A DNA stretch of 22,262 nucleotides from a virus (taxonomy: Duplodnaviria > Heunggongvirae > Uroviricota > Caudoviricetes), in IMG/VR virus record IMGVR_UViG_3300045988_036280, positions 1 through 22,262 of that record; one strand, written 5' to 3'. Numbering within the stretch: the stretch's first letter is position 1; each line of letters opens with the position of its first letter. The notes below the pieces were generated by a model. That model saw only the letters and a program-made list of their open reading frames with translations. It had not been told where the DNA came from and ran no database searches. Both the position numbers and the translations under genes were made by a program. Positions 1,624-10,325 of this stretch are shown here, one piece after another.

Positions 1624-3100
1624 TAACTTGAGCGACGAAGAGCAAATCGAATTGCTCGAGCTACTCGAAGAAGAAGAGAACTACCGTAACACACACCTGC
1701 TATATGAATTTACGCCATACAGCAAACAGCGTGAGTTCATCGACGCCGGGCATGACTATCCAGAGCGCTGTTTTATGGCTGGTAACCAGCTTGGTAAGTC
1801 ATTTACTGGTGCTGCTGAAGTCGCGTTTCACCTTACCGGGCGTTATCCGGGCACAAAAGGCTATCCTGCTGATGGTAAATATGGCGGTGAGTGGAAAGGT
1901 AAGCGTTTTTATGAGCCTGTTGTCTTTTGGATTGGTGGCGAGACAAACGAGACTGTAACCAAAACGACTCAACGCATCCTGTGTGGTCGTATCGAAGAGA
2001 ATGGTGAGCCAGGCTACGGTTCCATACCTAAAGAAGACATCATTAGCTGGAAGAAGTCTCCTTTCTTTCCGAACCTTGTTGATCACCTTCTGGTTAAGCA
2101 TCACACGGCTGATGGCGTTGAAGATGGCATTTCAATCTGCTACTTCAAGCCATACTCGCAAGGTCGTGCTCGCTGGCAGGGTGACACAATCCACGGCGTG
2201 TGGTTTGACGAAGAACCACCATACAGCATTTATGGTGAAGGCCTTACCCGTACCAACAAATACGGGCAATTCTCAATTCTGACGTTTACCCCGCTGATGG
2301 GGATGTCTGACGTTGTTACCAAGTTCCTGAAGAATCCAAGCAAGTCGCAGAAAGTGGTCAACATGACCATCTACGACGCTGAGCACTACACAGACGAACA
2401 GAAAGAGCAAATCATCGCATCTTATCCTGAGCATGAGAGAGAGGCGCGTGCTCGCGGTATTCCTACGATGGGTAGTGGTCGAATCTTCCAGATACCGGAA
2501 GAGACTATTAAGTGTCAGCCGTTCGAGTGTCCTGATCACTTCTACGTAATTGGTGGGATGGATTTCGGATGGGATCACCCGCAGGCGCAGGTTCAGCTTT
2601 GGTGGGATAAGGACGCAGACATAATCTACCTTTCACGCGTTTGGAAGGCGAAAGAAAAGACAGCCGTTCAGGCGTGGGGAGCTGTTAAACCATGGGCGCA
2701 TAAAGTGCCAACCGCATGGCCTCATGACGGAAACCAGCACGAGAAGGGCGGCGGTGAGCAGCTCAAAGGGCAGTATGCGGACGCTGGATTTATGATGTTG
2801 CAGGAGCATGCAACATGGCCTGATGGCGGCAACGCTGTTGAGCCTGGCATCACTGAATTGCGAGACATGATGCTCGACGGTCGCTTCAAAGTATTCAACA
2901 CCTGTGAGCCATTCTTTGAGGAGTTCCGCCTCTATCACCGTGATGAAAACGGGAAAATCGTCAAGCTTAACGACGACGTGCTATCCGCCGTTCGCTATGC
3001 ATACATGATGCGCCGCTTCGCAAAAATGATGCGCGACATCAAAAAGCCAAAAGAGAAAAAGATACCAGCCCCAATCAGGCCCATCGCACGGAGAACTTAA
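1601..3100 (+). CDS. 2: Terminase large subunit, P22 gp2-like (499 aa)
   Basis: Walker A-like [13 protein letters not shown] near the N-terminus; length and sequence match P22 gp2; conserved position after terS. Confidence 0.95.
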
Positions 3101-5266
3101 ATGGCCGACGAAAACAGACTCAATTCCATTCTGTGTAAGTTTGACGCAGACTGGATGGCGAGCGATGAAGCCAGAACCGAGGCGACAAATGACCTGTATT
3201 TTAGCCGAGTGTCGCAATGGGATGACTGGCTATCAAACTACACCACCCTGCAATATCGCGGACAATTCGATGTTGTCCGCCCGGTGGTCAGGAAGTTGGT
3301 CGCAGAGATGCGCCGGAACCCTATCGACGTTCTCTTCCGACCAAAAGACGGTGCTAATCCTGATGCAGCCGATGTGTTGATGGGGATGTATCGTACTGAT
3401 ATGCGCCATAACACGGCAAAAATTGCCGTTAACGTTGGCGTTCGTGAGCAGATAGAGTCCGGCGTTGGTGCATGGCGTCTGGTCACGCAGTACGAAGACA
3501 ACGATCCAACAAGCAACAATCAGGTAATTCGACGCCTGCCAATTCATGAAGCCTGCTCACACGTCATATGGGACGCCAACAGCAAGCAGATGGATAAGAG
3601 CGACGCTAAGCACTGCACGGTGATTAACGCCTTGTCGCGCAATGTCTGGAAAGAGTTCGCAGAGGATTACGGTATTGATCCGGACACCTTGCCATCTTTC
3701 CAGAATCCGAACGATACATGGCTGTTTCCGTGGGTATCGAATGATGTCGTCTACGTCGCTGAGTATTACGAGGTCGAAGAGAAGAAAGAGAAAGTCTTCA
3801 TCTACCGCGACCCGCTGACAGGTGAGCCGGTAAGCTATTACCAGCAGGATATCAAAGACGTCATCGACGACCTGGCTAATCGTGGATTCATTAAGGTAGC
3901 AGAGCGCAAGGTGAAGCGTCGGCGTGTGTATAAGTCGATCATCACCTGTACGCAGATACTGAAAGACCGCGAGAAGATAGCCGGAGAGCATATTCCAATC
4001 GTTCCAGTGTATGGTGAATGGTCATTCGCTGGTGACAAGGAGTGCTACGAAGGAGTGGTAAGGCTGACGAAAGACGGTCAACGCCTTCGTAACATGATCA
4101 TGTCGTTCAACGCCGATATTGTTGCTCGTTCACCGAAGAAGAAACCGACCTTCTTCCCTGAGCAAATCGAAGGCTACGAATACATGTACGGTGGAAATGA
4201 TGACTATCCGTACTATCTGCAGAACAGGACCGATGAAAACGGTAACGACCTGCCGATTGGTCCAATCTCCTACATGGAAAACCCTGAAGTGCCGCAAGCC
4301 AACGCTTACATGCTTGAGGCAGCCACCAACGCAGTGAAAGAGGTGGCTAGTCTTGGCGTGGATGCGCAGGCGGCAAATGGTCAGGTCGCTTTCGATACCG
4401 TCAATCAACTGAACATGCGGGCAGACCTTGAGACATACGTGTTTCAGGATAACCTGGCTACCGCAATGCGACGTGATGGCGAGATTTATGCCTCAATGGT
4501 CAACGATATTTATGACGTTCCTCGCCATGTAACGCTGACTCTTGAAGACGGAAGCGAGAAAGACGTTCAACTCTACGCGCAAGTTGTAGATTACCAGTCC
4601 GGCAATGTGGTCACACTCAACGACATTCGCGGTCGCTATGAGTGCTATACAGACGTTGGACCATCCTTCCAGAGTATGAAGGAACAGAACCGCGCAGAGA
4701 TTCAGGAGTTACTCACCAAGGTTCCACAAGGTACTCCAGAGTTCCAGATGCTGATGCTGCAATACTTCACGCTGCTTGACGGTAAAGGCGTCGAGATGAT
4801 GCGAGAGTACGCGAACAAGCAACTGGTGATGATGGGGCTGAAGAAACCAGAAACACCTGAAGAGATGGAGATGGTACAGCAGGCTCAACAGCAGCCGCAG
4901 CAGCCATCAGCAGAGCAAATTCAGGCGCAGGGTATCCTTCTGCAAGGTCAGGCTGAATTGCTCAAGGCAGAGAACCAACAGGCGCAGATTCAGGTTGAAG
5001 CCGCCAAGGTTGAAGCCCAAAACCAACTCAACGCCGCGAAGATTGCGGAAATCTTCAACAATATGGACCTAGACAAGCAGGCAGAACTGCGTGAGTACCT
5101 CAAGCTCGTAGGTCAATTCCAGCAACAGCGCAGCAAAGATGCTCGTGCTAACGCTGAGCTGCTTCTTAAAGATGCAGACCAGACTCATTCACAACGCATG
5201 GATTTCGCGAATCTTATGCGTCAAGTTCAAATCCCCTCCGGCGGAGTAGCCGAGACACCTCAATAA
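3101..5266 (+). CDS. 1: Portal protein, P22 gp1-like (721 aa)
   Basis: Large ORF directly after terL with GGAGA ribosome-binding site; length close to the P22 portal; Q-rich coiled C-terminal region typical of the P22 portal barrel. Confidence 0.93.
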
Positions 5267-7530: not shown

Positions 7531-7755
7531 ATGACACACATGATCTTTCGTCATGGCGACATGAAGAAGTGGAAAGGCGTTGGCTACGACTTTGAAATCG
7601 TGAAAGCCGAAGAGCTTCAGGAATATCTGGATGCTGGCTGGTTTTCACATCCTGATGACCTTTTGAAGGATGTTGCAGAGCCAGAAGAAAAACAGCGTAA
7701 AAAGCCCGGTCGAAAACCTAAGGCGGCAGCAGATGAACCTGACAACGAAGGGTGA
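7531..7755 (+). CDS. Small hypothetical protein (74 aa) with a basic K/R/P-rich C-terminus, inserted between coat and gp4
   Basis: ATG at 7531 preceded by GGAGA (7521-7525); product [45 protein letters not shown]...[18 protein letters not shown]; 3' end overlaps the gp4 start by 23 nt. Confidence 0.4.
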
Positions 7756-8233
7756 TTTAGTTCTTGCGGCATTACGTAAGCTCGGTGTGGCATCAAATGC
7801 CACGTTAACCGATGTCGAACCGCAGTCTATGGAAGATGGCGTCAACGACCTTGAAATGATGATGGCTGAATGGCTTGGCGGTGATGCGTCACCAGGTATC
7901 AACGTTGGCTACATTTTCGCTGATGCAGATGTCGCTCCAGATCCTGGCGATGAACACGGTTTATCAAATAACGCTATAAATGCTGTCATTTTCAACCTTG
8001 CCTGCCGCATTGCTCCGGATTATGCGCTGGAAGCGTCTGCAAAACTTATAACCACTGCCAGATACGGGAAAGAGCAACTCGTCAAACTGTCTGCAATGGA
8101 CAGAGCAAAAGCCGCTAAATGTAAGTCCGGTTATCCAAACCGTATGCCTGTTGGTAGCGGTAATCAGTTGGCGAAGTGGAACGGTTGGAATTACTTCCAC
8201 CGGAAGGAACCTTGCGATAACGGGAGCGAATAA
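7733..8233 (+). CDS. 4: Head completion / portal-binding protein, P22 gp4-like (166 aa)
   Basis: From the ATG at 7733 the product [47 protein letters not shown] matches the P22 gp4 N-terminus as recalled; the longer 187 aa ORF from 7670 is probably not the real start. Confidence 0.85.
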
Positions 8234-8338
8234 ATGCCGATTCAGCAACTTCCGCTTATGAAAGGTGTCGGCAAAGATTTCAGAAACGCCGACTATATCG
8301 ACTATCTGCCAGTGAATATGCTGGCAATTTTGATATAA
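8234..8338 (+). pseudogene. Remnant 5' end of gene 10 (34 codons: [34 protein letters not shown] then stop), cut off by the HNH cassette
   Basis: Starts TAAATG-coupled to the gp4 stop exactly where gene 10 should begin; first 31 codons are a gp10 N-terminus; reading frame leaves gp10 after codon 31 and stops 3 codons later. Confidence 0.7.
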
Positions 8339-8339
8339 T
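8331..8339 (+). promoter_or_regulatory. Candidate extended -10 promoter element (TGaTATAAT) just upstream of the HNH gene
   Basis: Exact TGnTATAAT match at 8331-8339; no convincing -35, which is consistent with an extended -10 promoter; HNH ATG lies 36 nt downstream. Confidence 0.3.
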
Positions 8340-8374
8340 AAGTACATGAAAAATCGAAACTTTAAGGAGTAGAT

Positions 8375-8959
8375 ATGCTTTCTGAGAATGCTAAAGATAT
8401 ACCTGGATTTGAAGGTGTTTATGCCGTAACAGAAGATGGCAGGGTATATTCTCACTCACGTGTTGTTAAGGCTGCGCATGGCAGCACGCAACTCAGAAAG
8501 GGGCGCTGGTTAAAGCCTAAAATCAATCAGGGAAGGGTGCTTTATAATATCGGAGCAAAATGGACTTTTGCCCATCGAATCGTTGCAATGACATTCCTGC
8601 CAAATCCTGAAAACAAGCCTCAGGTAAATCATATTGATGGCAATCCACTCAATAATAACGTCAATAATCTTGAGTGGTGCACTCAAAGCGAAAACATCAA
8701 ACATGCATACGCCACCGGATTAAAGAAACCAATCAAGTTTTTCGGAACCAAGCACCCAAAACACAAGTTGAGTGATGACGATGTTCTTGCAATCAAGTCA
8801 TCAAAAGAAAGCTTGTCAGTAATTGCGGCTAAGTACGGGATATCTAAGACCTGGGCAAGTAGGCTAAAGCGTGATGCTAACTGGGTTCATATAAAGGTTG
8901 ATTCCAATGGCAATACAACAACTACCACTAATGAAGGGATTGGGGAAAAGTGCGGTTAA
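8375..8959 (+). CDS. HNH homing endonuclease (NUMOD4 N-terminal motif plus HNH_3 core, 194 aa)
   Basis: AAGGAG ribosome-binding site 5 nt upstream of the ATG; GFEGVYAVTEDGRVYSH (NUMOD4-like); AHRIVAMTFLPNPENKPQVNHIDGNPLNNNVNNLEWCTQSENIKHA (HNH_3 signature); C-terminal region looks like a helix-turn-helix; last ~17 codons overlap the new gp10 start in another frame. Confidence 0.85.
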   Translation: MLSENAKDIPGFEGVYAVTEDGRVYSHSRVVKAAHGSTQLRKGRWLKPKINQGRVLYNIGAKWTFAHRIVAMTFLPNPENKPQVNHIDGNPLNNNVNNLEWCTQSENIKHAYATGLKKPIKFFGTKHPKHKLSDDDVLAIKSSKESLSVIAAKYGISKTWASRLKRDANWVHIKVDSNGNTTTTTNEGIGEKCG

Positions 8960-10325
8960 TGCTGATTATATAGACCAACTTCCAGTCAATCTTTTAGCTA
9001 CGCCCAAGGAGGTGTTGAATTCATCGGGATATCTTCGCTCATTCCCGGGCATTGCCAAACGTTCTGATGTGAACGGCGTATCGCGGGGCGTCGAGTACAA
9101 CATGGCGCAGAGTGCTGTATATCGCGTGTGTGGGGGCAAGCTGTATAAGGGCGAAAGCGAAGTCGGTGATGTTGCCGGAAGTGGTCGCGTATCAATGGCG
9201 CATGGTCGGACATCTCAGGCTGTAGGCGTTAATGGTCAACTGGTCGAGTATCGCTATGATGGCACGGTTAAAACCGTCTCAAACTGGCCTACAGACAGCG
9301 GATTCACACAGTACGAGTTAGGTTCAGTTCGCGACATTACGCGCTTACGTGGGCGTTATGCGTGGTCAAAAGACGGAACTGATTCATGGTTTATCACTGA
9401 CCTTGAAGACGAATCGCACCCTGACCGCTACAGCGCACAATATCGTGCAGAGTCGCAGCCTGACGGCATCATCGGCATAGGTACATGGCGAGACTTCATA
9501 GTCTGCTTTGGTTCGTCGACGATTGAATATTTCTCCCTGACTGGTGCAACCACTGTTGGGGCTGCTCTGTATGTCGCACAGCCATCGCTGATGGTGCAGA
9601 AAGGCATTGCCGGGACTTACTGCAAAACGCCATTCGCTGATTCTTATGCGTTCATCAGCAATCCGGCAACAGGTGCTCCGTCTGTATACATCATCGGATC
9701 CGGTCAGGTTTCACCAATCGCCAGCGCGAGCATTGAGAAAATCCTCCGCTCCTACACTGCTGATGAACTGGCTGATGGTGTGATGGAATCGCTGAGATTT
9801 GATGCTCATGAGTTGCTGATTATCCACCTTCCGCGCCATGTTCTCGTGTACGACGCATCTTCAAGCGCCAATGGTCCGCAATGGTGTGTGTTGAAAACTG
9901 GCTTGTATGACGATGTGTACCGCGCTATCGACTTCATTTACGAAGGCAATCAGATAACGTGCGGAGATAAGCTGGAATCGGTTACCGGCAAATTGCAGTT
10001 CGATATCAGCAGCCAGTACGACAAGAAACAGGAACACCTGCTGTTTACTCCACTGTTCAAAGCGGATAACGCCAGATGCTTCGATCTGGAGGTGGAATCA
10101 TCCACTGGCGTAGCTCAGTACGCCGACCGCCTGTTCCTCTCTGCAACCACTGACGGCATCAATTACGGACGTGAGCAGATGATTGAGCAGAATGAACCGT
10201 TCGTTTACGACAAACGCGTTTTGTGGAAGCGTGTCGGGCGCATCAGGAAAAATGTCGGCTTCAAATTGCGTGTTATCACTAAGTCACCTGTCACTCTGTC
10301 TGGCTGCCAGATAAGGATTGAGTAA
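8907..10325 (+). CDS. 10: gp10 tail-hub protein, P22 gp10-like (472 aa from the ATG at 8907), N-terminus supplied by the HNH cassette
   Basis: [48 protein letters not shown]... is colinear with P22 gp10 as recalled; the ORF track extends to 8898 only through a non-ATG codon. Confidence 0.88.

Follow-up and report, generated by a model that had tools for sequence, protein, structure and literature searches.

The homing endonucleases I-HmuI, I-HmuII and I-BasI of Bacillus phages are encoded within self-splicing group I introns of DNA polymerase genes. A similar enzyme is encoded by the DNA analysed here, a stretch of 22,262 nucleotides (nt) from a virus of the class Caudoviricetes (IMG/VR record IMGVR_UViG_3300045988_036280, positions 1 to 22,262; the whole stretch is called the window), in which an HNH endonuclease gene and a second start of gene 10 follow an interrupted 5' end of gene 10, a virion gene of P22-like phages. 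Gene 10 is essential for retaining the packaged DNA in the head, as established by P22 genetics. Sequence comparisons suggest that the block of about 700 base pairs (bp) at positions ~8327-9026 is probably a free-standing homing-endonuclease cassette for the 5' end of P22-like gene 10, which would rescue the essential gene that it targets. The cassette enzyme shares with the I-HmuI group the order of its domains, with the DNA-binding β-sheet region of NUMOD4 at the N-terminus, the ββα-metal motif of the HNH domain and a C-terminal helix-turn-helix (HTH), as well as the conserved catalytic His and Asn residues. Unlike these enzymes, it is free-standing and not accompanied by a ribozyme; it is about 26% identical to I-HmuI and has N85 in place of D74, and single-strand nicking is a trait of I-HmuI.

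Several other described systems resemble the locus in part. Free-standing homing endonucleases of the Seg and Mob type in T4-like phages are reportedly accompanied by the co-conversion of flanking markers. Nuclease genes of phage ICP1 lie at exchange boundaries, and no mention of duplicated or remnant gene ends was found in the corresponding paper (PMC10448857). In both cases, as in the window, a nuclease gene is located beside conserved genes, occurs sporadically and has divergent sequence on one side, with a sharp change in similarity at the nuclease. However, these nuclease genes are intergenic and leave their neighbours whole, whereas the cassette interrupts a coding sequence, leaves a stump of it and supplies a new start. 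An endonuclease-associated duplication of the C-terminal end of atp6 has reportedly been seen in Allomyces. In fungal mitochondria, endonuclease genes have also been described in association with partially duplicated C-terminal ends of genes such as atp6 and cob (PMC6279837). Here, too, the endonuclease lies close to a gene end, and this end is present a second time in divergent form; one version belongs to the complete gene, and the other survives as a fragment. The fungal duplications are organellar, concern the 3' end and involve GIY-YIG or LAGLIDADG enzymes; in contrast, the cassette concerns a 5' end, for which a ribosome-binding site and a start codon have to be brought along as well, and its fragment lies upstream and is probably still translated. 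The nrdA gene of Aeromonas phage Aeh1 is said to be split by mobE, and T4 gene 39/60 is a gene in pieces as a result of an endonuclease insertion (mobA). In these genes, too, a free-standing endonuclease occupies a coding region, and neither an intron nor an intein is involved; however, their two halves are both expressed and together form a functional protein, whereas the stump left by the cassette is redundant and a full replacement is carried. Synthetic home-and-rescue (HomeR) and cleave-and-rescue gene drives combine an essential-gene target with a sequence-divergent rescue copy (PMC7968924; bioRxiv 10.1101/2019.12.13.876169). By analogy, only the drive allele would be both uncut and functional in the phage locus as well; while the synthetic drives use engineered Cas9 in insects, the cassette would be a natural, protein-only phage equivalent with presumed cleavage.

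A 5'-end version of such an arrangement in a phage virion gene, with start signals and a stump that could serve as a homology arm, was not found in the literature covered, which did not include Casjens & Thuman-Commike 2011 (Virology 411:393). An earlier note on this DNA, made from the sequence alone, had likewise been aware of no such arrangement in P22-like virion genes. The enzyme class and the behaviour of free-standing endonucleases are thus known already; the replacement of the 5' end of a phage virion gene, with a stump upstream, appears to be new as far as the literature covered shows. Beside introns and inteins, it would constitute a third route by which a homing endonuclease can reside inside an essential coding sequence, namely by bringing a replacement for the part that it displaces.

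Two starts of gene 10 and the HNH gene between them

The TAA stop of gp4 directly abuts the ATG at 8234, with which the first copy of gene 10 begins. This copy, the stump, differs from cassette-free alleles of the E. coli type by 2 to 6 mismatches in an alignment of 94 nt, and its frame of 34 codons closes with TAA TAA at 8336-8341. The mobile block contains, in this order, the stops, a promoter-like box, a ribosome-binding site, the HNH gene and the replacement 5' end of gene 10. The ATG of the replacement copy, at 8907, sits in the 3' end of the HNH open reading frame (ORF), in a different frame, and opens a gene 10 product (gp10) of 472 amino acids (aa); the sole functional start of gene 10 is supplied by the cassette. 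The GC content is 0.41 for 8327-8906, 0.39 for 8907-8999 and 0.51 in the remaining gene 10. In E. coli genomes, the RefSeq annotation pipeline PGAP calls the stump an incomplete 'packaged DNA stabilization protein' pseudogene, followed by an 'HNH endonuclease' and by gp10, for which it chooses the same ATG as that at 8907.

Most of this layout had been read correctly in the earlier note. The coupling of the gp4 stop to the start at 8234, the 31 normal codons and the stop at 8338 were confirmed in the sequence and by a match of the stump to PF11134, and the extended -10 element TGATATAAT and an AAGGAG site are both present, as described, ahead of an ORF of 194 aa. Its assignment of this ORF to NUMOD4 and HNH_3 agrees with Pfam, and the second start in the 3' end of the HNH gene leads into a full-length gp10 that matches PF11134 from end to end. 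A realignment of codons 1-31 of the two copies returned the same numbers (24 of 31 residues shared, 33 of 93 nt different); 22 of the differences are at third positions, and 16 of the 24 conserved codons show a synonymous change. The feature had been delimited as 8234-9005, with the second copy compared as far as codon 31; its layout stands, its right end does not.

The end of the divergent tract was mapped by aligning the new gene 10 to 16 cassette-free alleles. Identity to these alleles is about 50-57% per 30-nt block before nt ~120 of the gene and 97-100% thereafter; the divergence reaches codon 40 (TPKEVLNSS, encoded by different codons), which corresponds to window position ~9026. Over codons 1-40, the replacement copy shares 62% of the nucleotides and 80% of the amino acids with E. 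coli-type cassette-free alleles, and nt 73-120 (48 positions) contain 19 mismatches between free and replacement alleles. Relative to the cassette-free gene, the block is not a pure insertion: the recipient sequence is broken after codon 31, codons 32-40 are swapped for the divergent tract, and about 700 bp substitute for 27 nt. The left edge of the block is uncertain by a few nt, the right edge by about 20 nt.

The protein encoded between the two starts consists of a NUMOD4 domain (residues 7-53, E value 1e-8), an HNH_3 domain (residues 65-107, E 2e-10) with the motif residues N85 H86 ... N98 ... N107, and a C-terminal HTH. I-HmuI (PDB 1U3E) is its only significant sequence match in the PDB (E 1e-8). 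The HNH catalytic residues on which the earlier assignment depended, a general-base His and Asn residues with metal-binding and structural roles, are in place: H86, N98 and N107 align with H75, N87 and N96 of I-HmuI and are invariant in 38 homologues. A model calculated with AlphaFold2 from the alignment of these homologues has a mean predicted local distance difference test (pLDDT) score of 85 and shows the elongated, three-part fold of this enzyme type, in which strands (residues 16-65) are followed by the HNH core (83-114) and three helices (134-165). In a Foldseek search against the PDB, 1U3E was again the only significant match (178 aligned columns, E 1.5e-6, probability 1.00), and resolvase-type HTH domains appeared among weak, non-significant matches only (E 0.25-1.1). 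The tail of the protein (residues ~175-194), of which the last ~18 residues are the start of gene 10 read in another frame, is predicted to be disordered, and such a tail is confined to the five endonucleases at the gp4/gene 10 site. By these sequence and model comparisons, the ORF is an intact I-HmuI-type HNH endonuclease; it would add to this type a new enzyme with a predictable target region. A search of positions 8100-9200 against Rfam gave no family match even at E <= 1, so that no group I intron is detectable there.

The signals ahead of the HNH gene are conserved as well. The sequence TGnTATAAT is present in all five cassette lineages (see below), in differing reading frames relative to the stump, so that neither a coding role nor use as a stop explains its conservation; the related HNH genes at the gene 10/26 junction lack it in their upstream sequence. 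A scan for two-hexamer promoters did not call the site at 8331-8339. The leader AATCGAAAC..GGAGTAGATATG is conserved among the cassette lineages and in HZ41. At the end of the stump, the inner stem TGCCAG/CTGGCA together with the following ATTTTGAT scores as terminator-like, and an extended hairpin at 8294-8337, formed by the stump end and the first cassette bases, has a folding energy of -18.4 kcal/mol (z -2.2). This hairpin could be a read-through attenuator or a piece of the recognition site.

Spread, relatives and origin of the block

Salmonella phage UPF_BP1 is the only carrier of the cassette among 50,697 phage records (two records, at 98.8% identity). In complete E. coli genomes, the cassette is present in 18 of 5,426, while 915 match some part of the region; further carriers are 27 IMG/VR contigs and 8 metagenome contigs, and the stump, the HNH gene and the replacement start were found together in 27/27 and 8/8 of these. 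Since 18 complete E. coli chromosomes and dozens of contigs of independent origin show this layout, it is not an assembly artefact. No cassette was found when species-representative genomes were scanned with the HNH, the best matches being 49% identical and located in metagenome-assembled genomes of Bacilli. Among close relatives, the presence of the cassette is sporadic at a single fixed locus; the arrangement is recurrent yet sporadic. The earlier note had considered that it might turn out to be a known, widely conserved feature, which does not fit this distribution. Decayed copies of the HNH gene also occur: in E. coli ES5 (locus L007, 2648-3231), a frameshift splits the ORF in two, in another locus (L200, ~906-2812) the ORF is interrupted by an IS21-family element of ~1.9 kb (IstA/IstB), and two protein clusters, P0031 and P0033, consist of truncated HNH proteins. 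The decayed copies match the expectation for the invasion-decay cycle of homing endonucleases.

The mobility of the block is reflected in its nucleotide diversity (pi), which was computed over 28 distinct carrier sequences. Over 8295-9044, pi is 0.000-0.016. To the right, from 9045 to ~9990, it amounts to 0.03-0.10 (mostly 0.04-0.08), and it climbs further as the gene approaches its 3' end; on the left side, the successive values are 0.054 and 0.25. The diversity of the block is roughly 5-10x below that of the adjacent gene 10. The carriers span at least four coat/gp4 types, with coat protein identities of 100, 73, ~25 and ~23% and gp4 identities of 100, 97-99, 60 and 39-41%, and several gp26 types are represented. 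The block moves, sharply bounded and almost invariant, between diverged backgrounds. The first ~50 nt of the stump are background-specific (e.g., in UPF_BP1) and the last ~35 nt are invariant, which places the left crossovers inside the stump; the right crossovers fall just past nt ~120. This is the pattern expected from the repair of a broken cassette-free gene 10 with a carrier as template. Judging from these crossover positions, the stump, which the earlier note had regarded as a dead remnant of the original start, is probably the left homology arm of the cassette and not merely a dead relic. With such an arm, an unrelated gp4 gene in the recipient phage would be no barrier to the entry of the block. 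The cassette also accounts for some of the mosaicism seen where gp4 meets gene 10 in P22-like phages.

Protein databases contain relatives of the HNH at 83, 82, 72 and 69% aa identity, all of which are encoded between gp4 and gp10 of other P22-like phages. Each of these lineages has a stump of its own host's gp10 type. In four of the five lineages, including that of the window, the stump breaks at ...LPVNML(A); the remaining stump is shorter and decaying. All five have the conserved leader with the ribosome-binding site and an HNH frame that overlaps the replacement start of gp10. The replacement starts share 0.67-0.82 nt identity with each other and 0.53-0.68 with almost any cassette-free allele, and this greater mutual likeness suggests that they have long travelled together with the endonuclease. 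In the lineage at 72% identity (L203), a comparison with the cassette-free phage MS2 LVA gave 90% identity as far as the stump and 71% for gene 10 in its entirety, and no internal switch at nt 120 could be located in this pair; as far as this comparison goes, the endonuclease marks an exchange boundary. On a background of 43.5% GC, gp10 of L203 (4560-6353) has 597 aa versus 472 and carries a C-terminal extension.

Two loci bear on the origin of the replacement start. In IMGVR_UViG_2909177499_000003 (L248), gene 10 is free of an endonuclease, and over the first 60 nt it shares 85% identity with the replacement copy and 63% with the common type; at 79% nt identity, this is the closest endonuclease-free relative of the replacement 5' end, and the rest of the gene is of the E. 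coli type. This start is either a native allele of the donor class or the footprint of a lost cassette. In IMGVR_UViG_3300013714_000001 (L244), a distant HNH gene (42% identity) lies directly between gp4 and a gp10 of the replacement type, without a stump and without a TATAAT box, and the end of the HNH gene runs into the gp10 start as it does in the cassette; this locus may represent the ancestral, intergenic arrangement. The GC content at third codon positions (GC3) is 0.38 in the replacement tract, 0.41 in the HNH gene and 0.55 in gene 10, and the nucleotide divergence of the tract equals that of intergeneric homologues. Because of the abrupt switch at nt ~120, the HNH-like GC3, the intergeneric level of divergence and the loci L248 and L244, the sequences indicate that the replacement start is a retained piece (~120 nt) of a naturally divergent class of gene 10 alleles, rather than a tailored recoding of the N-terminus, as the earlier note had read it, or a recoding that evolved in place.

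The exact donor of the replacement 5' end was sought with degenerate patterns, which matched only cassette carriers in IMG/VR (26 contigs) and in the metagenomes (8 contigs). A tblastn search of the 50,697 phage records with the replacement N-terminus found nothing closer than 84% except UPF_BP1, and a protein search with the 61-aa N-terminus returned short fragments only and was uninformative. The native versions that did turn up, L248 and L244, are related to the replacement start and not identical with it. The most parsimonious course of events would start with an intergenic endonuclease between gp4 and gene 10 in a phage of the divergent allele class, as in L244. The enzyme would then have cut gene 10 of the common allele class, and the first repair would have joined the left end illegitimately, thereby creating the stump.

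Candidate mechanism and rival explanations

If a carrier and a cassette-free P22-like genome meet in one cell, the enzyme would damage the cassette-free gene 10 around codons 25-40, and the damaged gene would be repaired with the carrier genome as template. The earlier note had likewise put the target in the 5' end of gene 10 and regarded the replacement as resistant to cleavage; the comparisons support the core of that reading (an intact enzyme, sporadic presence at one locus, movement as a bounded block and the supply of the gene's start), while cleavage, target position and resistance are putative. The resident codons 1-31 would pair with the stump as left arm and gene 10 from nt ~121 onward with the right arm, so that the ~700-bp block would replace 27 nt of the recipient gene. 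The carrier itself would have no intact target, as its site would be split by the insertion and the right half swapped for divergent sequence. Since no in-register identical run between the two gene-start copies is longer than 5 nt, these copies cannot recombine out the cassette, and since both homology arms lie in the conserved gene 10, the cassette can enter phages with unrelated gp4 and coat genes. The replacement start is packed so tightly behind the enzyme that the HNH reading frame runs into it. In its most complete form, the proposal is a natural 'home-and-rescue' drive, in which a divergent rescue copy, a portable stump arm and possibly a weapon of the lysogen under its own promoter act jointly; that all of these apply together is suggested tentatively by the sequence features and is less probable than the homing cassette as such. 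The phage family is well studied and has good genetics, and P22, Sf6 and HK620 allow direct tests.

Several observations weigh against a homing cassette of this kind. Only about 2% of the region-matching E. coli genomes carry it; hence it is not sweeping. The only clue to the position of the target is the point at which the recipient sequence breaks off. In place of D74, the Asp that serves I-HmuI as a metal ligand, the enzyme has Asn (N85), which is invariant across the 38-member alignment and, by that token, is probably a family trait and not a defect. P22-like phages recombine readily at module boundaries, and ordinary recombination could account for some of the spread. The extended -10 pattern has two matches in the window where 0.55 are expected, which is not significant by count. 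Finally, a simple determinant of immunity was proposed and rejected: the first seven cassette-free alleles, including those of Sodalis phiSG1 and APSE-1, all have ATG at codon 29, while all five replacement copies have Leu or Cys there, which first suggested the Met29 codon as the target and as the determinant of immunity; a degenerate-pattern scan then found ~40 endonuclease-free IMG/VR alleles with Leu29 (N-L-L-A-T-P-K-E), and the Met29 argument was dropped.

The main rival is compatible with homing. It was considered that the cassette is in the first place a weapon, i.e., that the enzyme is produced in the lysogen from its own sigma-70-type promoter and benefits the prophage chiefly through interference competition, in that P22-like phages without the cassette have their gene 10 damaged when they superinfect or are co-induced, with homing as a by-product. 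This explanation would account for the conservation of the TGnTATAAT box in five lineages and in differing frames relative to the stump, and for its absence from the HNH genes at the gene 10/26 junction, which directly follow the stop of gene 10. The would-be target is an essential virion gene, and the involvement of an endonuclease in phage-phage competition has a precedent (PMC11620839). However, the box is not statistically enriched in the window, and the low prevalence and the decayed copies suit a selfish element better than a selected defence; we consider a weapon as the primary function rather unlikely, though deserving of attention. An inactive HNH, or one without specificity for gene 10, that is spread as a passenger by the ordinary homologous recombination of mosaic P22-like genomes would fit the independent variation of the gp4, coat and gp26 types as mosaic virion modules, the low prevalence and the presence of N85. 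Such a passenger is improbable: nearly all copies have an intact frame with all family-invariant residues, the low diversity of the block points to a recent spread into gene 10 alleles that had already diverged, and the retention of the architecture and of an open frame through 69-83% protein identity suggests selection on the enzyme.

Two further explanations were considered. The 5' end of gene 10 might have been duplicated in place, the endonuclease might have landed between the copies, and the downstream copy might have been recoded for resistance. The dominance of synonymous changes (16 of the 24 conserved codons) would be expected under this scenario, and the aa identity of the tract to E. 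coli-type alleles (0.80) exceeds that of intergeneric homologues of equal nt identity (0.65-0.70). Nevertheless, the abrupt rise from 62% to 97-100% identity at nt ~120 is the signature of a recombination joint, the composition of the tract matches the HNH gene and not gene 10, related 5' ends are native without an endonuclease (L248) or stand beside a distant HNH without a stump (L244), and gene 10 of L203 is foreign throughout, which makes a local origin very improbable. Even further removed is the possibility of a splicing element (group I intron or intein) or of a packaging HNH that is associated with the terminase, to which we give practically no weight. I-HmuI itself is intron-encoded, and HNH proteins reportedly assist the terminases of some cos phages; however, Rfam detects no intron across the locus, the frame of the stump ends in two stops, and the new copy starts from an ATG of its own with a complete N-terminus, which leaves nothing to splice. 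The HNH gene lies between gp4 and gp10 and not beside the terminase, and it is absent from ~98% of the relatives. The homing cassette thus remains the explanation that we regard as probable.

Features and further inserts around gene 10

The coordinates of the features are collected in Table 1.

Table 1. Features of the gp4/gene 10 locus and related HNH loci (window positions unless another locus is named).
Feature	Position	Strand	Basis or remark
gp4, tail accessory factor / head-tail adaptor	7670..8233	+	PF11650, E 2e-58; upstream context gene, varies among carriers
Gene 10 stump (codons 1-31 = 8234-8326, then 3 cassette codons, ILI)	8234..8338	+	PF11134 positions 1-28, E 7e-11
Inverted repeat TGCCAG-N8-CTGGCA at stump end	8307..8326	+	native to gene 10; absent from replacement copy
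Mobile block, ~700 bp	~8327..9026	+	diversity profile and identity switch versus cassette-free alleles
Putative extended -10 promoter-like element TGATATAAT	8331..8339	+	consensus match
Shine-Dalgarno sequence AAGGAG	8364..8369	+	5 nt ahead of HNH ATG
HNH endonuclease gene, 194 aa	8375..8959	+	NUMOD4 and HNH_3
AAGG, possible ribosome-binding site of replacement gene 10 start	8894..8897	+	read from sequence; 9-nt spacing
Replacement 5' end of gene 10, codons 1-40	8907..9026	+	alignment to cassette-free alleles
Full-length gene 10, 472 aa, head-completion / packaged-DNA stabilisation protein	8907..10325	+	PF11134 positions 1-469, E 4e-298
HNH genes at gene 10/26 junction	HZ41 (L002) 3274-3819; L006 4620-5153; L114-L125 and L133-L137 ~3001-3537; window equivalent ~10325		

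Annotations of the region are affected by the second start. In UPF_BP1 (NC_047875), gp10 is annotated at 2283-3593 from an internal start as a protein of 436 aa, while the true start, which overlaps the HNH gene, gives 472 aa; the stump is unannotated in this record. The arrangement explains the recurrent mis-annotation of a truncated gp10, as in UPF_BP1, as well as the recurrent pseudogene call in RefSeq E. coli genomes. Upstream of the locus, the 5' end of the long form of gp4 and an overlapping upstream ORF (~7670-7760, compared with HZ41 1247-1360) show short tandem repeat variation: HZ41 has SQSQSQSQ and PEPEPEPE runs in places where a single unit is present in the window.

Two further NUMOD4/HNH families, 55% and 43% identical to the cassette enzyme, are located exactly between gene 10 and the tail-needle gene 26, without a stump and without a TATAAT box. 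The cassette and an HNH gene at this second site are both present in four loci (L006, L094, L096 and L097). The final ~290 nt of gene 10 (equivalent to window positions ~10037-10325) are strongly diverged in HZ41 and L006, and the other loci with an HNH gene at the gene 10/26 junction have a gp10 with an overall identity of only 82-92%; in these sequences, it looks as if a variant 3' end of gene 10 travels with the HNH genes at that junction. One carrier of the cassette (L107, 4948-5448) has ~500 bp between genes 10 and 26 without similarity to the known HNH families of the junction, which may be another insert.

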